Positions 15,951-61,632 of a stretch of DNA of 64,000 nt are shown in pieces. Every line of letters begins with the position of its first letter. Position 1 is the first letter of the stretch. The stretch covers positions 3,181 through 67,180 of the forward strand of contig JACPFM010000071.1 in the NCBI GenBank assembly GCA_016182965.1, given 5' to 3'. Below the pieces are notes generated by a model, which did no database searches, was not told the origin of the DNA, and worked only from the letters and a program-made list of their open reading frames with translations. Source of the DNA: Deltaproteobacteria bacterium. Its GTDB lineage: Bacteria > Myxococcota_A > Polyangia > Polyangiales > JADJMO01. A program made the position numbers and the translations under genes.

Positions 15951-16151
15951 GTCGTCAGTCGTCAGTCGTCAGTCGTCAGTCGTGTCAGTCGTCAGTCGTC
16001 AGTCGTCAGTCGTCAGTCGTGAGAACCTCTCGTCGAGCCTGGTCGAAGGTCGAAAGGTCGAAGGTCGAACCAGGGGCGGAGCCCCTGGAACCCCGCGGAA
16101 CCGGATGGGAAACGGGCTCTCGCTTCGACCTTCGACCTTCGACCTTCGACC
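15951..16151 (+). repeat. Heptamer-array/hairpin composite element, copy R1
   Basis: About 10 tandem GTCGTCA units (15951-22), a spacer, the left arm (GGTCGAA)4 at 16041-16070, the core palindrome ccaggggc-gga-gcccctgg, and the right arm (TTCGACC)4 at 16124-16151. Confidence 0.9.
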
Positions 16152-39435: not shown

Positions 39436-40275
39436 CTACTTGCCGAAGAACCGCGGGGGACGCCGCTCGAGGAACGCCGACATCGCCTCGCCGAGATCGC
39501 CGGACGGGAGGAAGGCGGCGTTCCACGCGGCGACGTGACGGAGACCGCGGGCGACCTGCGGCGCGATCGCCTCGTCCATCACCTGCTTGATGCCCTGCAC
39601 GACCAGCGGCGGATTGTCGGCGATCGATCGCGCGAGCGCGCGCGCGCCGCCGAGCAGCGCGTCTTGCGACTCGAACACCTCGTTGACCAGACCGATGCGC
39701 AGCGCGTGCTCGGCCGGGAAATCGCGGCCGGTGAAGGCGAGCTCGCGCGCGTGACCCTCGCCGACGATCGCCGGAAGGCGCTGGAGGCTGCCGAGATCGG
39801 CGACCATCGCGACCCGCACCTCGCGCACGGAGAACCTCGCGTCGGCCGAGCACAGGCGGACGTCGCACGCGGTGATCAGGTCGACGCCGCCGCCGATGCA
39901 CCAGCCGTTCACCGCGGCGATCACCGGCTTGCGGCACGCCGCGACCGCGTTGAAGGCCCGCTGCAGCTCGAGGATCTTGTCGTAGAGGCGGGTGCGCGTG
40001 GCGGCCGCGCCTTCGCCGCCGAGGAGGGGGCCGAGATCGCCCATCATCGCGGGCAGATCGAGCCCGTAGGTGAAGTGCGGGCCGTCGGTCCTCACGAGCA
40101 CGGCGCGAACGTCGTCGTCGCGATCGAGGGCCTCGAACACGCCGGGACACTCGCGCCAGAAGGCCGGGCCCATCGCGTTGCCCTTCCCTGGACCGCAGAG
40201 GGAGACCTCGGCAATGGAGTCGTGCTTGTCGACGCGAAAGGACTCGAGCTCGGGCATCCGCGGAGGTTCGGGCAA
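39436..40275 (-). CDS. Enoyl-CoA hydratase/isomerase (crotonase) family, dienoyl-CoA isomerase-like
   Basis: ...KPVIAAVNGWCIGGGVDLITACDVRLCSADARFSVREVRV.... Crotonase oxyanion-hole blocks. Confidence 0.85.
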   Translation of the reverse strand: MPEPPRMPELESFRVDKHDSIAEVSLCGPGKGNAMGPAFWRECPGVFEALDRDDDVRAVLVRTDGPHFTYGLDLPAMMGDLGPLLGGEGAAATRTRLYDKILELQRAFNAVAACRKPVIAAVNGWCIGGGVDLITACDVRLCSADARFSVREVRVAMVADLGSLQRLPAIVGEGHARELAFTGRDFPAEHALRIGLVNEVFESQDALLGGARALARSIADNPPLVVQGIKQVMDEAIAPQVARGLRHVAAWNAAFLPSGDLGEAMSAFLERRPPRFFGK

Positions 40276-40336
40276 CGGCCGTCGAACGACAAGTCCCCAG
40301 GTTTCGGGCGATGCGTCTCCGCTGCTTGTCTCCGCT

Positions 40337-40422
40337 GGGTCGAAGGTCGAAGGTCCAATGTCGAAGGGGGCGAACCGAGGCGCTTCCTACGACCTTCGAC
40401 GTTCGACCTTCGACCCGGTCCG
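40337..40422. repeat. Heptamer hairpin element, copy R2 (hairpin only, no flanking arrays)
   Basis: The left arm gggtcgaaggtcgaaggtc pairs with the right arm gaccttcgacgttcgaccttcgaccc, followed by ggtccg. It sits in a divergent intergenic region. Confidence 0.85.
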
Positions 40423-40504
40423 CGAGCGCGCCGAGGCGGGCGTTGGCAGGGAGTCGCGAACGCCCACTGCGCAAAGCCGACGACTTCCGTTAGGCTCGTC
40501 GGCC

Positions 40505-41023
40505 ATGAAGATCGCGCCCGGCAGCATCGTCCGCATCGACTACGAGATCCGCGTCAAGGGCGGCGACGTCATCGAGTCGTCGGCGAAGTCCGGCCCCGTC
40601 CAGTACGTGCACGGCGAGGGCAAGCTGCTCCCCGCGCTCGAGCGACGCCTCGCCGGGCTCTCCGCCGGGCAGTCGCTCGAAGGAGAGATCCCTTCGGCCG
40701 AGGCGATCCCCCCGGAGGAGACGCTGCCCACGCGCGCCATCCCGCGCGCCGAGTTCCCCAAGGACGCGCCCCTCGAGATCGGCTCGCTGTTCGAGGCGCA
40801 CACCGCGACGGGCGGCGTGATCGATCTCCGCATCATCGCCGTCGACGAGCGGCACGTCACCGCGCGCCTCTTGCCGCCGCTGTTCGGCAAGGACCTCGCC
40901 TTCAAGGTGAAGGTGATGATGATCGAGGACCCGGTCAGCCACGCGCGCGAGATCGTCTTCAAGAAGCCCCCGCCCATCCCCGCGGAGGCCCTCGACCTCG
41001 AGCTCGAAGAGGCGAAGGACTAG
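40505..41023 (+). CDS. FKBP-type peptidyl-prolyl cis-trans isomerase (SlyD/SlpA-like, with an IF insert)
   Basis: MKIAPGSIVRIDYEIRVKGGDVIESS...VQYVHGEGKLLPALERRLAGL..G. Typical SlyD-like N-terminus. Confidence 0.85.
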   Translation: MKIAPGSIVRIDYEIRVKGGDVIESSAKSGPVQYVHGEGKLLPALERRLAGLSAGQSLEGEIPSAEAIPPEETLPTRAIPRAEFPKDAPLEIGSLFEAHTATGGVIDLRIIAVDERHVTARLLPPLFGKDLAFKVKVMMIEDPVSHAREIVFKKPPPIPAEALDLELEEAKD

Positions 41024-41128
41024 CCCTAGCTAGCCAGTAGGGTGCTCACGCCGGAGGACCCAAGCCGATGCCCACCCCTCGGGGTGAGATCGACGAGATA
41101 CCCATGATGCCAGATCGGCCACGATCCT

Positions 41129-41458
41129 GTGCCGCACGGCGGTGGTCCTGCCCTGTTACCACTCGCGGCCGCGAGCGTAATCCGTGGTTTTCGATCACCG
41201 CGGGCTGAAGCCCACGGCAACTCGCGCAAGCCCCGCTTCGCGGGGCTCAGCGGACGGTTTCGGTGGAATCGAGCCTGGAGCTGCGGACAACACACCTGCG
41301 GTGGACGTCCGAGCAAGCCCAGCGAAGCTGGGCTTCAGAGGCATGCCGTGGGCTTCAGCCCGCGGACATCAAGGGAAGCACGTCTCGGGATCTGTCATCG
41401 CGCGCTCCCCTCGTGGCCTCAGCCTTGAAAACAGGGTCGAACCACCGCCGAGCGGCAC
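41129..41458. other. 330-bp nested inverted-repeat, multi-hairpin element (candidate structured ncRNA or MITE)
   Basis: The outer 29-nt IR (41129-41157 vs 41430-41458) matches at 24 of 29 positions. The inner IR is a perfect 22 nt (41198-41219 vs 41344-41365). Internal GC hairpins lie at 41230-41246 and 41314-41334. No credible ORF. Confidence 0.6.
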
Positions 41459-41707
41459 CAGTCGTCAGTCTTCAGTCGAAGGGCGAGAGCTCCCCGCGTG
41501 TCCGGGCCCGAAGAGGCTGCTTCAAGGGGGCCGGGAGATTGCCGTCCGTTTCGACCTTCGACCCGAAGGTCGAATCGAGAGCCCATTTCCACGGGGTTCC
41601 AGGGGCTCCGCCCCTGGTTCGACCTTCAACCTTTCGACGTTCGACCAAGCTCGACGAAAGATTCACAGTCTCTGACGACTGACGACTGACGACTGACGAC
41701 TGACGAC
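41459..41707 (-). repeat. Heptamer-array/hairpin composite element, copy R3 (inverted orientation, both ends present)
   Basis: Degenerate left array gtcgtca-gtcttca-gtcgaag (41461-81). The core is the reverse complement of R1 (ccaggggctccgcccctgg). (TGACGAC)5 at 41673-41707 runs straight into the TCA stop of the minus-strand gene. Confidence 0.9.
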
Positions 41708-43231
41708 TCACAGCGGGTACCCCAGCGTCGCGCCGAGCAGCGTCACCAGGATCAGCACCACCGGCGCGAGCACCAGGAAGACGAGGAACGTGTAGCCCAT
41801 CACGTCCTTCGCCCGCAGGCCGAACAGGCCGAGGATGGGCAGCATCCAGAACGGCTGCACGAGGTTGGCGAGCGCCTCGCCGAGGTCGTAGACCGCGACC
41901 ATCCAGCCGAGGTGCACCTTCAGATCGTGGGCGGCCTGCATCACGTAGGGCGCCTCGATCACCCACTTCGACCCGCCGCTCGGCACGAAGACGCCGAGGA
42001 CGGCGGAGTAGACGGCGATCACCGCCGGGAAGGTCTTCGGCGTCGAGACGGAGACGAACCAGCCGGCGAGCTTCTCGTTGAGGTGCGTCTTGACGATCAG
42101 CGCGGCGATGCCCGCGTAGAAGGGGAACTGCAGGATCACGCCCCACACGCCGGGCGTCGCCTCGCGCACCGAGCGCATCAGGCGCGCCGGCGTGCCGTGC
42201 AGCGCGACGCCGCAGGTGAGGAACAGCAGGTTGATCGTGTTGAGGTTGAGCGCGTTGAGGCCCTGGCCGCTCTTGGCGAAGTACCGCACGAGGTAGGTGC
42301 TCGCGAGCAGCACGAAGAGCGCGTTGAGGATCGACGAGTGCTCGAGCCACTCGCCGGGCGTGCCCTTCACCGGCGGATCGTCGCGATCGAGCGGCGACTC
42401 GCCGAGCTCGATGCCCATCGAGGCGGCGGTGCGCGCGCGCGCCGCGTCGGGCGCGTAGAGGTAGACGAGCGCGGTGACGATCACGATCTCGACCGCGACG
42501 CTCACGAGGCTCTGCCAGAGGAAGATGGTGTTCGACAGCGGGATGACGCCGCCCGGGATCTTGCCGCCGCCGTCGACGATCTGGCGGATCGCGGGCTGCA
42601 GCGCGCTCGGCGTGGCCATCTGCAGCGCCGCCGAGCCGGAGAGCCCCTGCGCCCAGATGCTCCCGAGGCCGAGGAACGCGCTCGCCGCGACGGCGCGGTA
42701 GTCGACGCCCTGCACGCGGCGCGCGGTCTCCTTGGCGAGCATCGCGCTGAAGATCAGCGAGAAGCCCCAGTTCAGCCACGACGAGAGCATCGCGAACATC
42801 GCGACCCACGCGATCGCCACCTTGGGGGCGCGCGGGAAGCTCGCGAGCGCGGCGATCAGCCGGTAGACCGGCCGCGTCGTCGCCACGACGTACCCGGTGA
42901 TGATCACGAGGGCCATCTGCAGGGTGAAGGGGATCAGCTCCCAGAAGCCGGTGCCCCAGATCTCGGCGGCGGCCAGCGTGGCGCCGCGTACGCCGGCGGT
43001 CGGTCGCAGCATGAGCACCGCCGCGACGAACACGAGGAACGTCGCCACCAGGGCGAAGACGAACGCGTCGGGGATCCACCGCTCCGCCCAGCTGGTGAAG
43101 CGCGCGGCGCCGCGCGCGAGGAGCCCCTCGGGCGGCGGCAGATCGGGCCTGGGCGCGGACGATTCGCCGCCGCTGCTGGACGCCTGGCCCCCGGACTTGC
43201 CGAGGGAGCTCGGGAGATCGGCCCCGGACAT
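41708..43231 (-). CDS. Short-chain fatty acid transporter (AtoE/TIGR00366-like)
   Basis: ATG 43231 (MSGADLPSS...). WAERWIPDAFVFALVATFLVF..., FWELIPFTLQMALVIITGYVVA..., SWLNWGFSLIFSAMLA.... Polytopic, about 507 aa. Confidence 0.75.
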   Translation of the reverse strand: MSGADLPSSLGKSGGQASSSGGESSAPRPDLPPPEGLLARGAARFTSWAERWIPDAFVFALVATFLVFVAAVLMLRPTAGVRGATLAAAEIWGTGFWELIPFTLQMALVIITGYVVATTRPVYRLIAALASFPRAPKVAIAWVAMFAMLSSWLNWGFSLIFSAMLAKETARRVQGVDYRAVAASAFLGLGSIWAQGLSGSAALQMATPSALQPAIRQIVDGGGKIPGGVIPLSNTIFLWQSLVSVAVEIVIVTALVYLYAPDAARARTAASMGIELGESPLDRDDPPVKGTPGEWLEHSSILNALFVLLASTYLVRYFAKSGQGLNALNLNTINLLFLTCGVALHGTPARLMRSVREATPGVWGVILQFPFYAGIAALIVKTHLNEKLAGWFVSVSTPKTFPAVIAVYSAVLGVFVPSGGSKWVIEAPYVMQAAHDLKVHLGWMVAVYDLGEALANLVQPFWMLPILGLFGLRAKDVMGYTFLVFLVLAPVVLILVTLLGATLGYPL

Positions 43232-43373
43232 GGCCGCCAATCTCGCACGGAACGCCGCCGTCGCGGAGGGTGGCGGAGAAGGAGCGGCCGTGTCGCGCTC
43301 GCCGCGTCGTCGCGTCGACCCCGGGCGCGACGCTCGGGCGTGGTCGCGTCCTTGCATCGAGGATGCCGCAGTC

Positions 43374-45590
43374 GTGACCGACTCGGGCTCAGCACGCCGC
43401 GCGCGCCGCGCGTGGGATGACGTCCTGCTCGCGACCGTCGCCTCGATGGCGATGATCGCCCAGCAGGTCGCGGGCAAGGCGACCCGCGACGCCCTGTTCC
43501 TCACGCAGTTCTCGGTGCAGCGCCTGCCCGACATGATGATCGCCGGGGCCGCCGTCTCGTTCGGCGCGGCGATCTGGGCCGCGCGGGCGCTCGCGCGGCA
43601 CGGTCCCCGCAAGGTCGTCCGGGCGGCCTTCACCGCGAGCGCGGCCGCATTCGCGGCGGAGTTCGCGATCAGCTGGGTGTCGCAGCGGTCGATCGCGCTG
43701 ATCGTCTACGCGCACATGGCGCTGTTCGGCGCCACGCTCATCTCGCTCTTCTGGTCGCTGGTCAACGAGCGGTTCGACCCGCACGCGGCGAAGCCGGCGG
43801 TGGCGCGCATCGCGGCCGGCGGAACGCTCGGCGGCGTGCTCGGCGGCGCGATCGGCTGGAACATCGCGTCGTGGACCTCGGTGCGCGGCATGCTCGTCGC
43901 GTTGGCGGTGTTGAACCTGGTGGCCCTCGCCGCGGTCGCGAGGATGAGCGAGCGACGTGTCTCGGCGCCGTCGCTCGCGCCCTCCAAGCCGCCCGAGCCG
44001 GTGGCCATCGGCTCGGGGCTGCGCGCGATGCGCGCCGAGCCCTACCTGCTCACCCTCGGCGCGATGGTCGCGGTGCTCGCCCTGGTCGAGGCGCTCGTCG
44101 ACTGGTCGTTCGCCGCGCAGGCGCGCGATCGCTTCGTCACCGGGCGATCGCTGATGGCGTTCTTCTCGGCCTTCCACATGGTGGTGTCGATCCTCACCTT
44201 CGCGGCGCAGGCGATGCTGAGCCGGCGTTCGCTCGAGCGCTTCGGGCTCGCCGGCACCATGATGGCGGCCCCGCTGGTGGTGGCGATGCTCGCGGGCGCG
44301 GCCATCGACACGCCCGGGCTCTTCGCGATCGTGGTCCTGCGCGGCGGCGAGGCGGTGCTCGCCAACTCGCTGTGGCGCTCGGCCTACGAGCTGCTCTACA
44401 CGCCGGTCGCGCAGGAGAAGAAGCGGCCGACCAAGACGCTGATCGACGTCGGCTGCGATCGCCTCGGCACGCTGCTCGGCGCGGGCCTGGTCATCGTCAC
44501 GCTGCGCCTCGGCGTCGCGACGGTCGCGGTGCTGGTGCTGGTCCTGGTCTTCGCCGCGATGGCCATCGTCCTCGCGCGCCTGCTGCAGTCCGGGTACGTC
44601 GCGGCGCTGGAGGAGAGCCTGCGCACCGGCGCCGTCCGCGTCGAGGGGCCGGAGGTGTTCGAGCTCACCACGCGACGGACCATCCGGGCCTCGCGGCTGC
44701 GGGCGCCGATCGCCTCGCCGCCGCCGACGCCACCGCCGCCGCCGGCGCCGCCGAGCGACCAGGCGGCCGCCGAGGGCGATCGGTTGCTCGCGGCGATCGC
44801 CGATCTGCGCTCGCGCGAGCGCCGCCGCATCCAGCGCGTGTTGTGCGCCGCGGACGACGATCCGCGCCTCGCTCCCTTCGTCCTCCCGCTGCTCGGGCGG
44901 GCCGACGTCCGGAGCGAGGCGGTCGCGTGGCTGCGCCGGCTCGCGCCGCGGATCACCGGGCAGCTCGTCGACGCCCTGGTCGACCCCGCGACCGATCCGG
45001 ACGTCCAGCGACGGATCCCGCGGGTGCTGCGCGCGGCCGGGTCGCAGGTCGCCGTCGACGGGCTGGTGCGCGCGCTCGCCGACGATCGCTTCGAGGTGCG
45101 CTACGAGTGCGGGCTGTCGCTGGCGCGCATGGTCGAGAGGGATCCGTCGCTCGCCGTCGCCTCGGAGCCGATCGTCGCCGCCGTCCGCCGCGAGCTCGCC
45201 GTCGAGCGACGCATCCTCGAGGCCGAGCCGGCGCTCGACCTGCTCGACGACGACGGCGATGGACCGCTGTTCGACCCGGGCCTGCGCGATCGGGCGAGCC
45301 GCGGCCTCGAGCACGTGTTCACCATCCTCGCGCTGATGCTCGATCGGGAGCAGCTCCGCACGGCCTTCCGCGCGCTGGTCGCCGGCGACGACGCGCTGCG
45401 CGGCACCGCGCTCGAGTACCTCGAGAACGTGCTCCCCGGTGAGATGCGCGACGCGCTGTGGCCCTACGTCACCGGCGCGCACCGCCCCACGCGACGCGGC
45501 GCGCGGTCGGCGCAGGAGGTGCTCGCCGAGCTGCTCCGGGCCGAGGGCCCGCTGTCGGCGCTGCGCGGGCGCCGCGAGAGCCTCGCCTGA
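43374..45590 (+). CDS. TLC/Npt-like (MFS-type) membrane protein fused to a C-terminal HEAT/ARM-repeat domain
   Basis: GKATRDALFLTQF... near TM1 resembles the K..RD.L motif of ATP/ADP-translocase-like carriers. About 11 TM helices. C-terminal ~250 aa carry repeated ...VAWLRRL..., DPDVQRRIPRVL, DDRFEVRYECGLSLARM. The GTG start is uncertain. Confidence 0.55.
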   Translation: MTDSGSARRARRAWDDVLLATVASMAMIAQQVAGKATRDALFLTQFSVQRLPDMMIAGAAVSFGAAIWAARALARHGPRKVVRAAFTASAAAFAAEFAISWVSQRSIALIVYAHMALFGATLISLFWSLVNERFDPHAAKPAVARIAAGGTLGGVLGGAIGWNIASWTSVRGMLVALAVLNLVALAAVARMSERRVSAPSLAPSKPPEPVAIGSGLRAMRAEPYLLTLGAMVAVLALVEALVDWSFAAQARDRFVTGRSLMAFFSAFHMVVSILTFAAQAMLSRRSLERFGLAGTMMAAPLVVAMLAGAAIDTPGLFAIVVLRGGEAVLANSLWRSAYELLYTPVAQEKKRPTKTLIDVGCDRLGTLLGAGLVIVTLRLGVATVAVLVLVLVFAAMAIVLARLLQSGYVAALEESLRTGAVRVEGPEVFELTTRRTIRASRLRAPIASPPPTPPPPPAPPSDQAAAEGDRLLAAIADLRSRERRRIQRVLCAADDDPRLAPFVLPLLGRADVRSEAVAWLRRLAPRITGQLVDALVDPATDPDVQRRIPRVLRAAGSQVAVDGLVRALADDRFEVRYECGLSLARMVERDPSLAVASEPIVAAVRRELAVERRILEAEPALDLLDDDGDGPLFDPGLRDRASRGLEHVFTILALMLDREQLRTAFRALVAGDDALRGTALEYLENVLPGEMRDALWPYVTGAHRPTRRGARSAQEVLAELLRAEGPLSALRGRRESLA

Positions 45591-45596
45591 TCGGCA

Positions 45597-45692
45597 GTCG
45601 TCAGTCGTCAGTCGTCAGTCGTCAGTCGTCAGTCGTCAGTCGTCAGTCGTCAGAGAGTGTGAATCTCTCGTCGAGCTTGGTCGAAGGTCGAC
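45597..45692 (+). repeat. Heptamer-array element, copy R4 (truncated after the first arm)
   Basis: Exactly 8 GTCGTCA units (45597-45652), then gagagtgtgaatctctcgtcgagcttggtcgaaggtcgacc, homologous to the R1/R3 left half. The remainder is missing. Confidence 0.85.
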
Positions 45693-45743
45693 CTGCAAAG
45701 CATCTGGCGGGAGACGTGGGCGGTCGAGCAGGCGACGGTCGCG

Positions 45744-47072
45744 TCAGAAGCCGCGCGTCGAGCCGAGCATCACGCGGAGCTCGTTCGGTCGCAGCCCGTC
45801 CTCCCACGTCTCGGTGCCGGCGCCGACGAGCACCTCGAGCTGGTGGTCCGGTGAGCTGGTGGTGCGGAACCCGACGGCGGCGCTCAAGCGGGTGAGCTTC
45901 GGGTCGAGCTCCGAGAGGCGCGCGCCCCACACGTTGCCGGCGCCGAGCTGCAGCGCGCCGTGGAGCCAGATCCAGATCGGCCACTCGTACTGCGCGGTGA
46001 CCACCAGCGCGCTGCGATCGACGAGGCGCCCGGGGCGGTACCCGCGCATCGGCTCGAAGCCGCCGAGGGTGATCTGCTCGGTGAACGGGATCGCGCCGCG
46101 CAGCGGGTCGACGAAGGCGGCGTACCCGACGAGGCCGAGCGTGCGGCGATGTCCGACGTCGAGGAACGCGCCTGCGGTCGCGCCGTAGCGGAGCCACCTG
46201 CGGGTGGTGTCGCCTGCGTGCTCGCCCGAGAGGACGAGACGCGCGCCGGTGCGCGGCCCGTCGGGATCGCGCGAGTCGAGCACGAGATCGAGCCCCTGGT
46301 GCGCGATGGTGTACCCGTCTTCGAAACCGGGCGGCAGCTCGACCTGCCCGGAGGCCACGCGCTGCGCGAGGCTCGGATCTCCGCAGCACCTGCGATCGTC
46401 GTCGAACCGGAGCCGCCGCACGCCGATCGACGTGCGAACGGCGCTCGCCCGGAAGATCCGCAGATCGAACAGGAGGCTCGCGGCGGTGCGATCGGAGCGG
46501 TAGCGGCCGAGGTCGCGCTCGCGGCTGCGCGGCCCGAGGCCGCCGAATAGCCCGTCCGAGCGGCGGGTCCACTCCGCGCGCAGCGACACCGTGCCGCGGT
46601 CTTCGCCGCGGTAGCGGACGGTCAGCCGGTCGACGACCGTGAACGACAGCCAGTCTTCGCCCCACGTCGCGGCGTGCATGCGGAACGCGTTCTTGCGCAC
46701 GACGAAGTCGTCCCAGAAGAAGTAGACGCCGACGCTCGGCAAGAGGCCGAACTCGTAGAACGCCGTCGGGACCCAACCGATCTTGTGCGCCTCGTCGAAG
46801 GTGAAGAAGTCGACGAGCCGGGTGGGCCAGCGGTGCTTCTCGGCGTGCGTCGTGAGCGCGCCGAGCGGGACGCGCAGCACGTACTCGTGCACCATCCACA
46901 GCGGAAAGAGGACCGTGCGCGGCGCCCAGGCGACCGCCTCGCCGACGGTCGTCCGCCGCTCGCCGCGTCCGTCGTAGTCGGGGCGGGGGCGTCGGTACGT
47001 CGCTGCCGCGTCGCCGCTCGCGCTGATTCCGGCGACGAGCAGCGCCGTCGCAAGCCACAACCGCACGGGCAT
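45744..47072 (-). CDS. Outer-membrane Omp85/BamA-like (bacterial surface antigen) beta-barrel protein
   Basis: Signal peptide MPVRLWLATALLVAGISASG. The C-terminal barrel ends ...NELRVMLGSTRGF (terminal Phe). ...ITLGGFEPMRGYRPGRL... is Omp85-like. Confidence 0.65.
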   Translation of the reverse strand: MPVRLWLATALLVAGISASGDAAATYRRPRPDYDGRGERRTTVGEAVAWAPRTVLFPLWMVHEYVLRVPLGALTTHAEKHRWPTRLVDFFTFDEAHKIGWVPTAFYEFGLLPSVGVYFFWDDFVVRKNAFRMHAATWGEDWLSFTVVDRLTVRYRGEDRGTVSLRAEWTRRSDGLFGGLGPRSRERDLGRYRSDRTAASLLFDLRIFRASAVRTSIGVRRLRFDDDRRCCGDPSLAQRVASGQVELPPGFEDGYTIAHQGLDLVLDSRDPDGPRTGARLVLSGEHAGDTTRRWLRYGATAGAFLDVGHRRTLGLVGYAAFVDPLRGAIPFTEQITLGGFEPMRGYRPGRLVDRSALVVTAQYEWPIWIWLHGALQLGAGNVWGARLSELDPKLTRLSAAVGFRTTSSPDHQLEVLVGAGTETWEDGLRPNELRVMLGSTRGF

Positions 47073-47135
47073 CGGACGCCGGAGGCCCCGTCGCGTCGCT
47101 CGAAGACTTCTGTCGCGGTGCGTCATCTTCGCGCT

Positions 47136-52114: not shown

Positions 52115-52119
52115 CAGGA

Positions 52120-52372
52120 GTCGTCAGTCGTCAGTCGTCAGTCGTCAGTCGGCTGAATCTTCAGCGCCGCGGTCGAAGGTCGAAGGCCAGGGGCCAAGCC
52201 CCTGGAACCCCGGGCAGCATCGGCCTTGTTTCGACCTTCGACGTTTGCCCGTCGCCTCCGAACGGTGCGAGGCCTATTCCCTGGAAAGGTATGCCCGCCA
52301 TCTGCGGGACTTGTACGTCGAACTCGCCGATACGGCGGGAGGAAGGCCGGCACGTGACTGACGACTGATGAC
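52120..52372 (+). repeat. Heptamer-array/hairpin composite element, copy R5
   Basis: (GTCGTCA)4 at 52120-52147. Arms ggtcgaaggtcgaagg / ttcgaccttcgac around ccaggggccaagcccctgg. A 110-nt tail. Degenerate inverted array tgactgacgactgatgac at 52355-52372. Confidence 0.85.
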
Positions 52373-59308: not shown

Positions 59309-59313
59309 CGACA

Positions 59314-59565
59314 GTCGTCAGTCGTCAGTCGTCAGTCGTCAGTCGAGACGTTGCCCATTCGCGACCGCGGCGCCGCGCGAGGCCCCGGCGGGCGGGGTCG
59401 AAGGTCGAAAGTCGAAGGTCGAAAGCCTGAAACGGAGAGACCTGCTCCGTTCGACCTTCGACCTTGGACCTTCGACGCTCGACCCGGTCTGCCACAGCCA
59501 GCGCACGGCGGGCGCCCGCGACGGCGCGGCTCACGACTGACGACTGACGACTGACGACTGACGAC
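59314..59565 (+). repeat. Heptamer-array/hairpin composite element, copy R6 (most complete)
   Basis: (GTCGTCA)4 at 59314-59341. The left arm ggggtcgaaggtcgaaagtcgaaggtcgaaag (59394-59425) pairs with the right arm cgttcgaccttcgaccttggaccttcgacgctcgaccc (59448-59485). tcacgac plus (TGACGAC)4 at 59531-59565 abuts the stop of the minus-strand gene. Confidence 0.9.
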
Positions 59566-61632
59566 TCAAAGGACCTTCACCACGTCGCGCAGGAAGATGA
59601 CGACGATGCCCATCAGGCCCTCGCCGGCGATGACGCCGCTGGCGACGCTGACCGTGTAGCGGTCGGCGAGCTCCTTGCGCTTCTTCAAGAGGCTCCAAGC
59701 GGCGAGCGCGCCGAGGAACATCGCGAAGCTGTCGTTGAAGTCGATGACCAGCGCGATGCCGAGGCCGGTGGCGCTCGGGACGAAGGTGGTCCACGCGGGC
59801 TTGGGCGGGGGCTTGGCGTCCGGATCGCGGTCGGGCAGGCGCGCGTCGGCCTGGAAGCGCGCGACCTCGCGCGCGTGCTGGCGCGCGCCGATCTCCTCCA
59901 GCACCGCGATGAGCACGCCGATCGACGCGCCCACGACGATGCCGGCCAGCGCCAGCGTGGGCAGGTTCTTCGCGCCGTCCTTCAGCAGCTTGGCGACCGA
60001 GGCCCAGGCGACCGCCGCCGGCGCGGCGAGCTCGTTGCCGAGCTTCTCGGGCTTGGCGACGAGGAAGTACACCGGCACGCACACCGCGGCGCCGGCGAGC
60101 ACGCCGAGCATCTGCGCCCAGAACTGCTTGCGCGGCGAGCCGCCGAGCAGGTACCCGGTCTTCACCTCCATCAGCAGATCGGCCGAGTGCGACGCGGCGC
60201 CGGCGGTGACGGTTGCGGTCATCAGGTTGGCGGCCGCGTTGCCGGGGACGAGCACGCCGAAGAGGAGCTGGGTGATCTTCCCCATCGCGCCGATCGGCGT
60301 GACGCCCGTCTCGCCGGTCGCGCGCGCCGCCACGACCGAGAGGAGGAACGCCGCCGCGACCGAGACGGTACCCTCGAGGATCGGCACCGCGAACCACGCC
60401 CACTGCATGTACACGCACGCGACGGCGCACGCGGCGAGGCCGAGCGCGAACCAGCTCTGCGGCACCTCGACCGAGGCGAGCGGGTCCTCGTTCCGCGCGG
60501 CGCCGCGGCGGAACATGCCCGACAGGCCGGAGAACGCGCGCGCGACCGTTCGCCAGCGGAAGGCGAAGGCCACGATGCTGGAGCTCACCATGATCGCGGT
60601 GCCCGGCCACACGCTCCACTTCGAGCGGAGCGTCGCGTGGAGCGCGTCGGGCACCTTCACCGGGATCGCGTGCACGGCCTCCGCGGCCTTCGCGAACGAG
60701 AGCCACCTCGCGGGATCCGCGGCGATCTCGGGCGGCGCGACGCGGAGCACGCCGTGATCGACGAGCCAGGGCGCCACGATCGCGTAGTCGAGGACGGCGC
60801 CGATGAGGAGCGAGGTCGCCACCTTCACGCCGACGATCGCGCCTGCGGCGTACAGGAGCAGGCTCGTGTTGGCGCCGAGCGACCACGCGCCCATTCCGTG
60901 GCCTCGCAGCGACCCGGGGAAGGGGATCACCTCGGGGATCCGGCGGAGGAACCCGGGCTTCGACTCGAGGGCGAGCTTGAGCGCCGCGGCGCCGATCGCC
61001 GCCGCGAAGAGCGAGCGCGCCTTGGCCATCGACGCGCGACCCGCCGAGTGCATGGTGCGGATCGTCTCGGCGCACACGACCCCGCCGGGGAAGCGCAGCT
61101 GCTCGGCGTTGATCATGTTGCGCTTGAGCGGCACCGCCACCACGACGCCGAGCACCGACACGCCGAGCATCCACGCGGCCAGGCGATAGCCGTCGAGATC
61201 GGGGATGGAGATGGTCCCGTCCTTGCGCAGCATGGCCATCGCCGGGATGGAGCTGACCAGGCCGGCCGAGGACATGTACGCCGCCGCCGACGCCGCGGTC
61301 TGCGAGGTGTTGTTCTCGAGCATCGACAGCGGGCGCATGCCGGGGAACACGCCGCGCAGCGCCGCGAAGATCGCGAAGCCGACGACCGCCGAGGTGATCC
61401 CCATGCCGAACGACCAGCCGATCTTCAGCCCGATGTAGAGGTTGGACGCGCTGAGGATCGCGCCGAGCGTCATGCCGGTGATCGCCGCGCGGAAGGTCAG
61501 CTGGGGCTCGTCCTTCTGGTAGACCTGCTCGAGCCACAGCCGGTCGCGCGCGGCGATCGCCTCGGGGTCGCGCAGCGGCACGGGATCGATCGGGAACGGT
61601 GCGGCGGTCGACCCCGTGTCCTCGGACGCCAT
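59566..61632 (-). CDS. OPT family oligopeptide transporter
   Basis: ATG 61632 (MASEDTGST...). QLTFRAAITGMTLGAILSASNLYIGLKIGWSFGMGITSAV.... About 16 TM helices; typical OPT N-terminal block. Confidence 0.85.
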   Translation of the reverse strand: MASEDTGSTAAPFPIDPVPLRDPEAIAARDRLWLEQVYQKDEPQLTFRAAITGMTLGAILSASNLYIGLKIGWSFGMGITSAVVGFAIFAALRGVFPGMRPLSMLENNTSQTAASAAAYMSSAGLVSSIPAMAMLRKDGTISIPDLDGYRLAAWMLGVSVLGVVVAVPLKRNMINAEQLRFPGGVVCAETIRTMHSAGRASMAKARSLFAAAIGAAALKLALESKPGFLRRIPEVIPFPGSLRGHGMGAWSLGANTSLLLYAAGAIVGVKVATSLLIGAVLDYAIVAPWLVDHGVLRVAPPEIAADPARWLSFAKAAEAVHAIPVKVPDALHATLRSKWSVWPGTAIMVSSSIVAFAFRWRTVARAFSGLSGMFRRGAARNEDPLASVEVPQSWFALGLAACAVACVYMQWAWFAVPILEGTVSVAAAFLLSVVAARATGETGVTPIGAMGKITQLLFGVLVPGNAAANLMTATVTAGAASHSADLLMEVKTGYLLGGSPRKQFWAQMLGVLAGAAVCVPVYFLVAKPEKLGNELAAPAAVAWASVAKLLKDGAKNLPTLALAGIVVGASIGVLIAVLEEIGARQHAREVARFQADARLPDRDPDAKPPPKPAWTTFVPSATGLGIALVIDFNDSFAMFLGALAAWSLLKKRKELADRYTVSVASGVIAGEGLMGIVVIFLRDVVKVL

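Follow-up and report, generated by a model that had tools for sequence, protein, structure and literature searches.

A Lineage-Specific Palindromic Element Between Two Convergent Genes Is Probably a Gene-Less Relative of Y1 Transposase Elements in Myxococcota

The FKBP/SCFA_trans Locus

The window, meaning the whole 64-kb stretch of DNA that was analysed, carries a 330-nt palindromic element (41129-41458) in the spacer between two convergent genes. On its left side, the spacer is bounded by an FKBP-type peptidyl-prolyl isomerase gene (SlyD-like, Pfam FKBP_C; 40505-41023, + strand), which lies outside the element, and the convergent gene on the other side encodes a short-chain fatty acid transporter (AtoE-like, Pfam SCFA_trans, 7.3e-106; 41708-43231, - strand). 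With gene ends at 41023 (FKBP) and 41708 (SCFA_trans), the spacer measures 684 nt, in agreement with the gap of about 680 nt between convergent genes given in an earlier note on this DNA. The same note described the element as abutting copy R3 of a repeat that it called the R family, and a separate repeat at 41459-41711, outside the element, does adjoin its right arm. This repeat is composed of inverted GACTGAC heptamer arrays around TTCGACC-type repeats and is multi-copy inside the window, with further copies near 15951-16150, 45588-45691, 52119-52240, and 59309-59566. Several dissimilar palindromic repeats gather in the FKBP/SCFA_trans spacer and in other intergenic regions of the window.

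The gene order YceI-Fpg-ECH-FKBP-SCFA_trans-CM_1-PDH is common to the window and to the syntenic relative L003, whose orthologues are 83% identical for FKBP and 86% identical for SCFA_trans (across 41711-43231). Since the FKBP/SCFA_trans gap is 4 nt in L003 versus 684 nt in the window, and since another repeat occupies this place in relatives whose FKBP is 95% identical, with their contigs ending there, the 330-nt element is, on the comparison of these spacers, an insertion specific to the source lineage.

Structure of the Element

The element is bounded by an outer 29-nt inverted repeat (IR), whose coordinates in the earlier note (41129-41157 and 41430-41458) stand, while the number of complementary positions is 25 of 29 (86%) and not 24 of 29. 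The core of the left arm is GTGCCGCACGGCGGTGGTCCTGCCCTGTT, and the right arm (41430-41458) is AACAGGGTCGAACCACCGCCGAGCGGCAC. When gaps are allowed, the pairing extends to about 55 complementary nt, with 41120-41175 matching the reverse complement of about 41410-41466, and the left extension takes in the NotI-containing palindrome ctcgcggccgcgag, which was found at 41162-41175 as previously described. Both forms of the outer IR exceed chance. Among 200 sequences simulated by a Markov model of matching composition, the best 29-nt IR reached only 21 of 29, and the gapped IR scores 26.5, where shuffles have a mean of 12 and a maximum of 23. Relatives of the outer IR were found in none of the fetched loci bearing hp1 (see below), and a metagenome scan for it gave 10 matches, all in coding sequence encoding RGGGSALF and all apparently due to chance.

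Inside the outer arms lies the perfect 22-nt inner IR reported before (41198-41219 and 41344-41365), for which 0 matches are expected by chance and which is the core of longer, 55-nt arms (41193-41247 and 41316-41370; 82% complementary). Each arm is a two-hairpin module, made up of a first hairpin, hp1 (CCGCGGGCTGAAGCCCACGGCA), a gap of about 8 nt, and a second hairpin, hp2 (AAGCCCnnn-loop-nnnGGGCT). The hp1 is a 22-nt imperfect palindrome with an 8-bp stem and a 4-nt loop, one position being C.A on the + strand or G.T on the other strand. In the left copy, hp1 (41198-41219, + strand) is a REP-like hairpin, CCGCGGGC-TGAA-GCCCACGG, then CA, and hp2 (41228-41247, + strand) is the hairpin AAGCCCCGC-TTC-GCGGGGCT. 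The right copy is inverted, with hp2' (41315-41335, - strand) as AAGCCCAGC-GAA-GCTGGGCTT and hp1' (41344-41365, - strand) reading TGCCGTGGGCTTCAGCCCGCGG on the + strand. Between the copies is a central spacer of 67 nt (41248-41314) with small hairpins of its own (cggacg...cgtccg); this and the other capped hairpins listed earlier, gccccgc-ttc-gcggggc and aagcccagc-gaa-gctgggctt, are all present in the sequence. The central spacer would occupy the position of the transposase gene in the full-length relatives L077, L119, and L131, and no tnpA remnant was detected in it by sequence similarity to the genes of these relatives. Only these two arms were found in the window, the portion of the source genome covered, and no third hp1/hp2 copy.

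A covariance model, R1, was built from two-hairpin modules and scores 57.2 bits on the left arm and 55.7 bits on the right arm (- strand, 41314-41367). Between the two arms, hp1 is identical at 22 of 22 positions, the linker has diverged, and hp2 has one compensatory change from C:G to A:T. This sole informative arm-to-arm substitution leaves the local hairpin intact while disrupting the long-range helix between the arms. The hp2 stem shows covariation in a set of 25 modules: both sides have changed in 12 cells, compared with 3.7 in shuffles, and stem columns 46/53 are occupied by CG, UA, and GC pairs. In these alignments, the hairpins are the conserved part of the element.

The minimum free energy (MFE) of the whole element is -203.3 kcal/mol on the + strand (z -8.8 vs. 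shuffles) and -213.7 kcal/mol on the - strand (z -10.8). The MFE structures also contain a local imperfect hairpin, AGGGAAGCACG...CGCGCTCCCCT, at 41372-41413, between hp1' and the right outer arm, which has a weak, unit-like match to model R1 (20.2 bits). The overlapping ORFs of the region, earlier judged not credible, have no Pfam match, and neither promoter-like nor terminator-like consensus sites were found at the element.

As for known RNAs, several of which the earlier note had looked for without success, an all-family scan with Rfam 15 (E <= 10) of 40000-43000 returned noise only. The best match, radC RNA, scored 16.7 bits with an E of 3.4, the gathering score being 40, and the others were mir-5360 and snoRNAs. 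A scan at Rfam gathering thresholds around hp1 in 18 related loci found only tRNAs. The 3' part of the element (ggtcgaacc...gcggcacca) resembled a tRNA or tmRNA, a candidate that was rejected as ARAGORN gives only a tRNA-Ala at 8740. A retron was likewise rejected, as neither a reverse transcriptase nor a credible ORF lies within or beside the spacer.

The hp1/hp2 Repeat Family in Other Genomes

The exact hp1 20-mer was found in more than 109 genome stretches of several phyla in a metagenome scan of 596 Gb, in which about one match is expected by chance for a sequence of this length. A scan of viral contigs gave no hp1 matches. The identical 20-mer is common to Planctomycetota, Acidobacteriota, Verrucomicrobiota, and Myxococcota. 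The source genome was not among the matches listed. In several of the genomes, hp1 is multi-copy, with at least 10 loci in the Polyangiaceae MAG co266_243 and at least seven loci with at least 13 matches in the Myxococcaceae MAG co266_258. It is mostly extragenic, as 88 of 105 among the matches listed lie outside coding sequence, by a crude GC3 gene call in which 60% of bases are called coding. That an identical 20-nt hairpin occurs across phyla is mildly surprising for REP-type repeats.

The 5' heads of hp1 vary across loci (GGTG 11, GTAG 7, AGTG 5, GTTG 5). The window copies have GTTG and CATG, compared with the canonical GTAG, which heads hp1 in copies from Gemmataceae and Chthoniobacter. 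Copies in the Polyangiaceae MAG have a T-run after hp2, like that of an intrinsic terminator. Doublets like that of the window were found at L011, L031, L039, L074, L020, L015, and L133, and the order hp1-hp2-spacer-hp2'-hp1' is seen in the window, in L077, L119, and L131, and in the doublets of L020, L015, and L133. What the window shares with other species is limited to the arms of about 55 nt and does not include its centre or outer parts.

Association With Y1 Transposase Genes

At five independent Myxococcota-type places (L043, L077, L119, L131, and L132-134), hp1/hp2 modules flank an ORF of about 138 aa, which came to light only when the ORFs lying between inverted hp1 pairs were examined. 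This ORF, carried by other genomes, scores 67 bits with Pfam Y1_Tnp (cut-off 23) and 57.2 bits with NCBIfam transpos_IS200 (cut-off 55). Its best solved relatives are the ISDra2-type TnpA structures of Deinococcus, 2fyx and 2xm3, and 2a6m is another relative in the PDB. The HVH motif is conserved, and one of five aligned sequences, P0122, has Asp in place of the Tyr that the other four carry. The protein stays below RAYT level (NCBIfam REP_Tyr_transpos 31.3 vs. a cut-off of 80) and is without the RAYT-specific motif NP(L/V)(R/K)xG, YVRGQRAHH following the Tyr. Relatives of the E. coli RAYT were sought in all loci by tblastn with an approximate query and by HUH...Y...NP regular expressions, and nothing was found. 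No Y1 transposase gene is present in the 64-kb window.

The gene-bearing copies differ in their ends. In L131, an IR of about 160 nt (173-330 and 797-950) surrounds tnpA, and in L119, the Y1 transposase gene lies between the arms of a 226-nt IR (99%). The assembly coverage of L119 is very low and this copy is possibly in part an artefact, so that L131, with its imperfect IR and unique flanks, is the safer example. In L043, the orientation of the modules relative to tnpA is reversed. Full-length copies are flanked by direct repeats of 43 nt at L077 and about 83 nt at L131, and direct repeats of this length are not predicted by the IS200/IS605 mechanism.

The Myxococcaceae MAG carries hp1-hp2...hp2'-hp1' doublets of about 225 nt. 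They match the gene-bearing L077 copy at each of its ends with 81-94% identity, and they share with it an internal 30-mer and roughly the final 45 nt of tnpA. Judged from this alignment, the doublets derive from a gene-bearing copy by internal deletion. The window element matches the gene-bearing copies in the hp1/hp2 modules only.

Origin of the Window Element

Because its inner arms are the modules that flank IS200-type Y1 genes in other Myxococcota, and because deletion doublets of such a copy occur in a MAG, the window element is probably a gene-less, non-autonomous, REPIN- or MITE-like derivative of a small mobile element that belongs to the IS200/IS605 (Y1, HUH) superfamily. It is most likely a known kind of bacterial repeat (REP/REPIN-like) that was inserted between two convergent genes. 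The non-autonomous transposon considered in the earlier note is supported in substance, the arms being Y1-flanking modules. The element does not qualify as a classical MITE, which would have terminal IRs together with a target-site duplication (TSD). A search for the TSD expected of a plain MITE found no significant flanking direct repeat beside either the outer or the inner IR. Since a flanking direct repeat is absent and the enzyme is of HUH/Y1 type, a REP/REPIN or 'TIRtron' repeat is the better comparison. The outer IR of 29-55 nt resembles the long terminal IRs of some full-length copies. It would be a lengthened end of the element itself, of the kind seen in L131 and L119, or else what is left of an earlier palindromic element into which the doublet went; it is compatible with the family because L131 and L119 carry long IRs beyond hp1.

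A putative cognate Y1 transposase, encoded elsewhere in the genome, would bind the hp1 hairpins where the DNA is single-stranded, such as on the lagging-strand template. The enzyme would then cut beside hp1 and move the unit via a single-stranded intermediate, leaving no TSD. Such a single-stranded, hairpin-directed route is the accepted working of IS608, ISDra2, and REP/RAYT systems. Once in place between convergent genes, the stack of hairpins would probably act as a passive bidirectional barrier to transcription or as a 3'-end stabiliser.

Alternative Explanations

The earlier note had also proposed a novel structured RNA. A large functional RNA, about 330 nt long and made from one strand, would then fold into the nested long-range helices and the capped hairpins. 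The fold is indeed predicted to be very stable (z -8.8 and -10.8), but the two strands fold equally well, as is expected of an inverted DNA duplication, and the only arm-to-arm substitution pair breaks the long-range helix while keeping the local hairpin. The absence of a credible ORF would suit an RNA gene, yet the element is also without promoter-like or terminator-like consensus sites and without any Rfam, tRNA, or tmRNA match, both in the region at E <= 10 and, for Rfam at gathering thresholds, around hp1 in 18 loci. The occurrence of G.T pairs in the stems of REPs has been taken to hint at a function at the RNA level (PMC3733652). The element is missing from the orthologous spacer of relatives, and other species have just the arms of about 55 nt, without the centre or the outer parts. 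On the whole, an RNA gene is highly improbable. A different case is a palindrome cluster selected by the host, as a bidirectional terminator or mRNA stabiliser for the convergent genes, and not kept as mobile DNA. The site just downstream of both stop codons is typical of REPs, which have been proposed to terminate or stabilise transcripts (PMC3733652), and the Polyangiaceae MAG copies have a T-run after hp2. The window hairpins, however, are followed by no T-tract and match no terminator consensus, and the relative L003 has a gap of 4 nt. The sequence identity of hp1 with the ends of transposase-bearing elements shows an origin as mobile DNA, so that a regulatory role would be an exaptation, and as such it is compatible with the mobile derivative. 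As a full explanation, host selection seems quite unlikely to us.

It is possible, although we find it rather doubtful, that the element is a nested composite, namely a 168-nt, Y1-transposase-dependent doublet (41198-41365) inserted into an older palindromic element or hairpin, which would be set by the outer IR and be about 162-180 nt long without the insert. The stretches of 40 and 64 nt between the outer arms and hp1 are not complementary to each other, the outer parts have no counterpart beside hp1/hp2 in other loci, and the repeated unit in the Myxococcaceae MAG stops essentially at hp1. In addition, the spacer and other intergenic regions of the window gather several unrelated palindromic repeats. 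On the other hand, the IRs of L131 and L119 run 100-200 nt past hp1, so that an outer IR can be part of one element with hp1/hp2. Neither the window nor the metagenome scan yielded another copy of the presumed host element, and neither layer has a TSD.

Significance

The analysis removes a false lead, since a strikingly structured 330-nt stretch of intergenic DNA is accounted for by mobile-element palindromes and not by a new large RNA. As far as the searched literature shows, the hp1/hp2 family of Myxococcota has not been described so far; a full-text search with sequence words found the hp1 core only in the REP of H. influenzae. The combination of hp1 and hp2 is a usable marker for a Y1-transposase-associated repeat family in this phylum. 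Such repeats lengthen intergenic regions in the source genome, break metagenome assemblies at the FKBP/SCFA_trans locus, and can influence the transcription of adjacent genes. Furthermore, a 20-nt hairpin that crosses phyla could inform the co-evolution of HUH transposases and their DNA hairpins.

A broader proposal, which we put forward tentatively and consider unlikely to hold in all its parts, is that hp1/hp2 modules mark an undescribed and widespread lineage of Y1 elements, with transposases that are IS200-like in sequence and RAYT/TIRYT-like in behaviour, the same 20-nt recognition hairpin in four phyla, REPIN-like doublets with two-hairpin arms, and target duplications of 43-83 nt, and that the window element is its gene-less offspring. 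If true, the target duplications would imply an insertion route unlike the peel-and-paste of IS608/ISDra2.

Comparison With Known Systems

Like classical, DDE-derived MITEs, the window element is small, gene-less, and intergenic, has terminal IRs, and folds into a long hairpin. In contrast to them, it has no TSD, and the related autonomous elements encode an HUH/Y1 enzyme and not a DDE transposase. With the IS200/IS605 elements (IS608, ISDra2), the family has in common the transposase family, the hairpin ends, the lack of a TSD in the window, and gene-less derivatives that arise through internal deletion, as in the Myxococcaceae MAG. Classical IS200/IS605 ends consist of two different subterminal hairpins on one strand, without a terminal IR. 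The ends of the present family are instead mutually inverted, with IRs of 55-226 nt, and the full-length copies of L077 and L131 have flanking direct repeats of 43-83 nt.

The REP/REPIN-RAYT systems are closer in several respects. The hp1 is, like the REPs of these systems (Nunvar 2010, PMC2817692; Bertels & Rainey 2011, PMC3116915 and PMC3337134), a short, imperfect, GC-rich, extragenic palindrome, and its 22 nt fall within the 20-40 nt of REPs. REPs occur as inverted dimers, which adopt larger folded structures and are located for the most part between convergent or co-directional genes (PMC3733652), and a REPIN consists of two inverted REPs and a spacer and is mobilised in trans (PMC3337134). 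Correspondingly, the two inverted copies of the window surround a spacer (arms 68 nt apart) and form one long hairpin, the element has no TSD, and in related genomes the palindromes flank a single Y1/HUH transposase gene. The REP of H. influenzae, GTAGGGTGGGCTTcAGCCCACC, contains the hp1 core (PMC2817692), which is GTGGGCTTCAGCCC(A/G)C in both. The differences are that each window arm has two hairpins and a REPIN arm one, that the window heads are GTTG/CATG and not GTAG, degenerate heads being known for some REP families (PMC3733652), and that the window has no other copy within its 64 kb. Moreover, the hp1 20-mer crosses phyla, whereas REPs are usually lineage-specific, and the associated transposase, unlike a RAYT, scores as IS200-type and has no NP(L/V)(R/K)xG motif.

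Y1 genes flanked by REPs have been named 'REPtrons', and those flanked by long, sometimes double-palindromic terminal IRs (TIRs) that form repeat families have been named 'TIRtrons' (PMC3733652). The TIRtron/TIRYT type (Di Nocera et al. 2013, PMC3733652) is matched by L131 and L119, whose Y1 genes lie inside long, partly self-complementary TIRs that carry hp1/hp2 innermost. As in that type, where gene-less TIR dimers or clusters are moderately abundant, the repeats also occur as gene-less dimers, both in several MAGs and in the window, and the window doublet, with its heads inside, corresponds to the 'TT' type of dimer of Di Nocera et al. The TIRs were called unrelated to GTAG REPs by these authors, whereas hp1 has GTAG-headed versions.

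Setting and Anatomy of the Element

The hairpin-dense element at 41129-41458 lies in a gap of 684 nt (about 680 nt in the earlier note) between the convergent genes of an FKBP-type isomerase (40505-41023, forward strand) and a short-chain-fatty-acid transporter, SCFA_trans (41708-43231, reverse strand). The features given in the earlier note are confirmed. The perfect 22-nt inner inverted repeat occurs at 41198-41219 and 41344-41365 as the core of longer arms (55 nt each, 82% complementary), and the NotI palindrome and the small GC hairpins are present too. The outer 29-nt inverted repeat (41129-41157 and 41430-41458) is also in place, with 25 of 29 positions complementary (86%) and not 24 as first counted; the complementarity spans about 55 nt when gaps are allowed, and among 200 Markov-simulated versions of the spacer the best 29-nt inverted repeat reached 21/29. 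Both strands fold far more stably than shuffled sequences (z of -8.8 and -10.8). The overlapping ORFs, already judged not credible, have no Pfam match, and the element contains no promoter or terminator consensus sites.

A separate repeat (41459-41711) borders the element, as the earlier note had observed, and is multi-copy inside the window. It belongs to a heptamer family, distinct from the hairpin family described below, in which inverted GACTGAC arrays surround TTCGACC-type short repeats; further copies lie at ~15951-16150, 45588-45691, 52119-52240 and 59309-59566, with a fragment at 40337-40417.

The Locus in Related Genomes

Two readings had been offered for this element, a novel structured RNA or a MITE-like non-autonomous transposon. 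An Rfam search over the region matched nothing even at E <= 10, and ARAGORN found nothing at the element; the sole tRNA of the window is a tRNA-Ala (GGC) at 8740-8813. Relatives were located by searching for homologues of the FKBP protein and then taking the contigs that encode them. L003, a syntenic relative with an FKBP 83% identical to that of the window, shares the gene order YceI-Fpg-ECH-FKBP-SCFA_trans-CM_1-PDH, and its FKBP-SCFA_trans distance is 4 nt versus 684 nt in the window. In two relatives with 95% identical FKBP (L001, L002), a repeat variant with GACTCTA heptamers occupies the corresponding position past the stop codon, and the contigs break off there. Thus, the 684-nt spacer is composed of lineage-specific insertions, and the element is not a conserved RNA locus.

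Elsewhere, the ECH-FKBP spacer measures 263 nt in the window and 66 nt in L003, and between SCFA_trans and CM_1, which are 66 nt apart in L003, the window carries about 3.9 kb of additional sequence (43232-47135). This extra sequence holds an ORF (42897-45590) with MFS/TLC-transporter and HEAT-repeat matches, and the heptamer-repeat copy at 45588-45691.

A Two-Hairpin Repeat Family

Each 22-nt arm forms a hairpin of its own, hp1 (CCGCGGGC-TGAA-GCCCACGG), and the exact hp1 20-mer is present in, at the least, more than 109 stretches of a species-representative genome collection, where about one is expected by chance. Among the matches listed, the 20-nt hairpin CGCGGGCTGAAGCCCACGGC is identical in Planctomycetota/Phycisphaerae, Acidobacteriota, Verrucomicrobiota, Myxococcota, Binatia and others, and many metagenome-assembled genomes (MAGs) have several loci each; examples from loci L006-L114 are L034 435-454, L067 4204-4223, L026 5967-5986 and L014 393-412. 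Such identity across phyla is unusual for REP-type repeats. A crude gene call from GC3 put 88 of 105 copies outside coding sequence, though it called 60% of bases coding. Viral contigs had no match to the 20-mer. The Gemmataceae and Chthoniobacter copies have the canonical GTAG head, and the Bryobacterales hp1 is located within clusters of other GC-TGAA-GC hairpins.

In Myxococcota, a second hairpin, hp2 (AAGCCCnnn...nnnGGGCT), follows about 8 nt past hp1, which is the same module as both window arms. The window element reads hp1-hp2-(67-nt spacer)-hp2'-hp1', the primes marking the inverted right-hand copies, and a covariance model of the module found only these two arms in the 64-kb window (57.2 and 55.7 bits; next best 20 bits). 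Across 25 modules hp1 is near-invariant and the hp2 stem covaries (CG, UA and GC pairs). Between the window arms, hp1 is identical and the linker has diverged; the hp2 copies are set apart by a single compensatory change, C:G to A:T, which leaves the local hairpin intact and disrupts arm-to-arm pairing. This pattern implies that selection or recognition targets the local hairpins, not the long-range helix that gives the look of a large RNA. Together with the lineage-specific spacer and the empty Rfam and ARAGORN searches, it leaves the novel structured RNA reading unsupported.

In one Polyangiaceae MAG (L018, L050, L065, L075, L090-L092, L106, L113, L114), the module occurs as single ~105-nt units with a conserved 45-nt leader, gacggaccttcgtgaaacggaccttggagtttccctttc, upstream and a T-run after hp2, which makes the unit look like an intrinsic terminator or the 3' end of a small RNA.

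The Associated Y1 Transposase

Inverted hp1 pairs about 560-600 nt apart enclose an ORF of ~138 aa, which is intact at locus L043 and at L077 (4965-5390) is interrupted by an in-frame TGA (codon 62). The ORF encodes a Y1 HUH transposase: it scores 67 bits with Pfam Y1_Tnp, 57.2 bits with NCBIfam IS200/IS605 (cut-off 55) and 31.3 bits with NCBIfam REP_Tyr_transpos (under the cut-off of 80), and its nearest solved structures are Deinococcus ISDra2-type TnpA. The hp1-hp2 modules also border 62-64%-identical homologues in three places (L119, L131, L132-134). In the L119 protein P0122 (293-718) the catalytic Tyr is replaced by Asp, and this and the L077 TGA make some of these genes look decayed. 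At L043 (1340-2066), the modules face away from the transposase gene tnpA, opposite to L077, L119 and L131; hp1 overlaps the end of tnpA at its stop codon, and the stretch from the upstream hp1 to the tnpA start codon holds a tandem ATGCGGCCCCAC repeat.

Remoter homologues (L115, 42% identical; L120, 32%; L135, 33%) are bordered by other palindromes in REP/REPIN fashion, with CTAG-headed hairpins at the flanks of L120 and L135. The L115 transposase, which bears the JGI name RayT, has on each side a ~190-nt doublet of a different palindrome, GCCCCGGACAGATGTCCGGGGC (2770-2970 and 3430-3630), with an hp2-like hairpin inside each.

In the Myxococcaceae MAG, four gene-less doublets of ~225 nt match the gene-bearing copy of L077 at both its ends; the aligned sequence includes the last ~45 nt of tnpA and an internal 30-mer, which shows that the doublets originated through internal deletion.

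Origin of the Window Element

The window layout is that of L077, L119 and L131 minus the gene, and also that of the doublets of L020, L015 and L133; no transposase homologue occurs within the 64-kb window. The transposon-derived alternative is supported in substance, as the arms match modules flanking Y1 transposases in the layout of gene-less doublets. The best-supported reading of these sequence comparisons is that the element is a non-autonomous derivative of the hp1/hp2-flanked Y1-transposase family, inserted between convergent genes. A check for target-site duplication found no direct repeats around it, and target duplication is not expected of IS200/IS605 elements. Perfect 43-nt direct repeats border the full-length tnpA element of L077 (4765-4807 and 5476-5518) and take in the stop codon of the upstream gene, and ~83-nt repeats of 91-93% identity border that of L131 (69-151 and 953-1036); these could stem from an unusual mode of insertion or from an error of assembly.

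None of the fetched loci contains a relative of the outer inverted repeat, and a metagenome scan with it gave chance matches only, inside coding sequence. In full-length L131 and L119, inverted repeats run well past hp1 (~160 nt, imperfect and with unique flanks, and 226 nt, respectively), so the outer repeat may be the extended terminal inverted repeat of the hp1/hp2 element itself. Alternatively, the doublet may have inserted into an older palindromic element to which the outer repeat belongs. This unexplained repeat, the identical hairpin across phyla and the direct repeats of 43-83 nt that border full-length copies might each hide something less ordinary.

For the non-autonomous derivative, a Y1 transposase would recognize the hairpins and then mobilize the element in trans via single-stranded DNA; we infer this from the mechanism established for IS608, ISDra2 and REP/RAYT (PMC6006769, PMC3479197, PMC2817692).

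Comparison With Known Systems

The element most closely resembles REPs and REPINs with their RAYTs (PMC2817692, PMC3116915, PMC3337134) and the systems in the survey of Di Nocera et al. (PMC3733652). In that survey, GTAG-tagged REPs occur in eight phyla, the PVC group included, and their head-head and tail-tail dimers fold into larger structures and favour sites between convergent or co-directional genes; it also describes 'REPtrons' and 'TIRtrons', the latter being Y1 transposase genes between long TIRs, some of them double palindromes, which make up repeat families (PMC3733652). The L115 layout is a textbook REPIN-RAYT case, and the H. influenzae REP has the hp1 core in common with the window family. 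Strict membership in REP/RAYT fails on the hp1-flanked transposase, which has no NP(L/V)(R/K)xG motif and scores under the NCBIfam cut-off; the heads in the window, GTTG and CATG where REP/RAYT has GTAG, speak neither for nor against it. Strict membership in IS200/IS605 fails on the architecture of the ends, each being an inverted copy of the other. With both memberships failing, the window element appears to behave as a repeat of the REPIN or TIR type that belongs to an IS200-like Y1 transposase.
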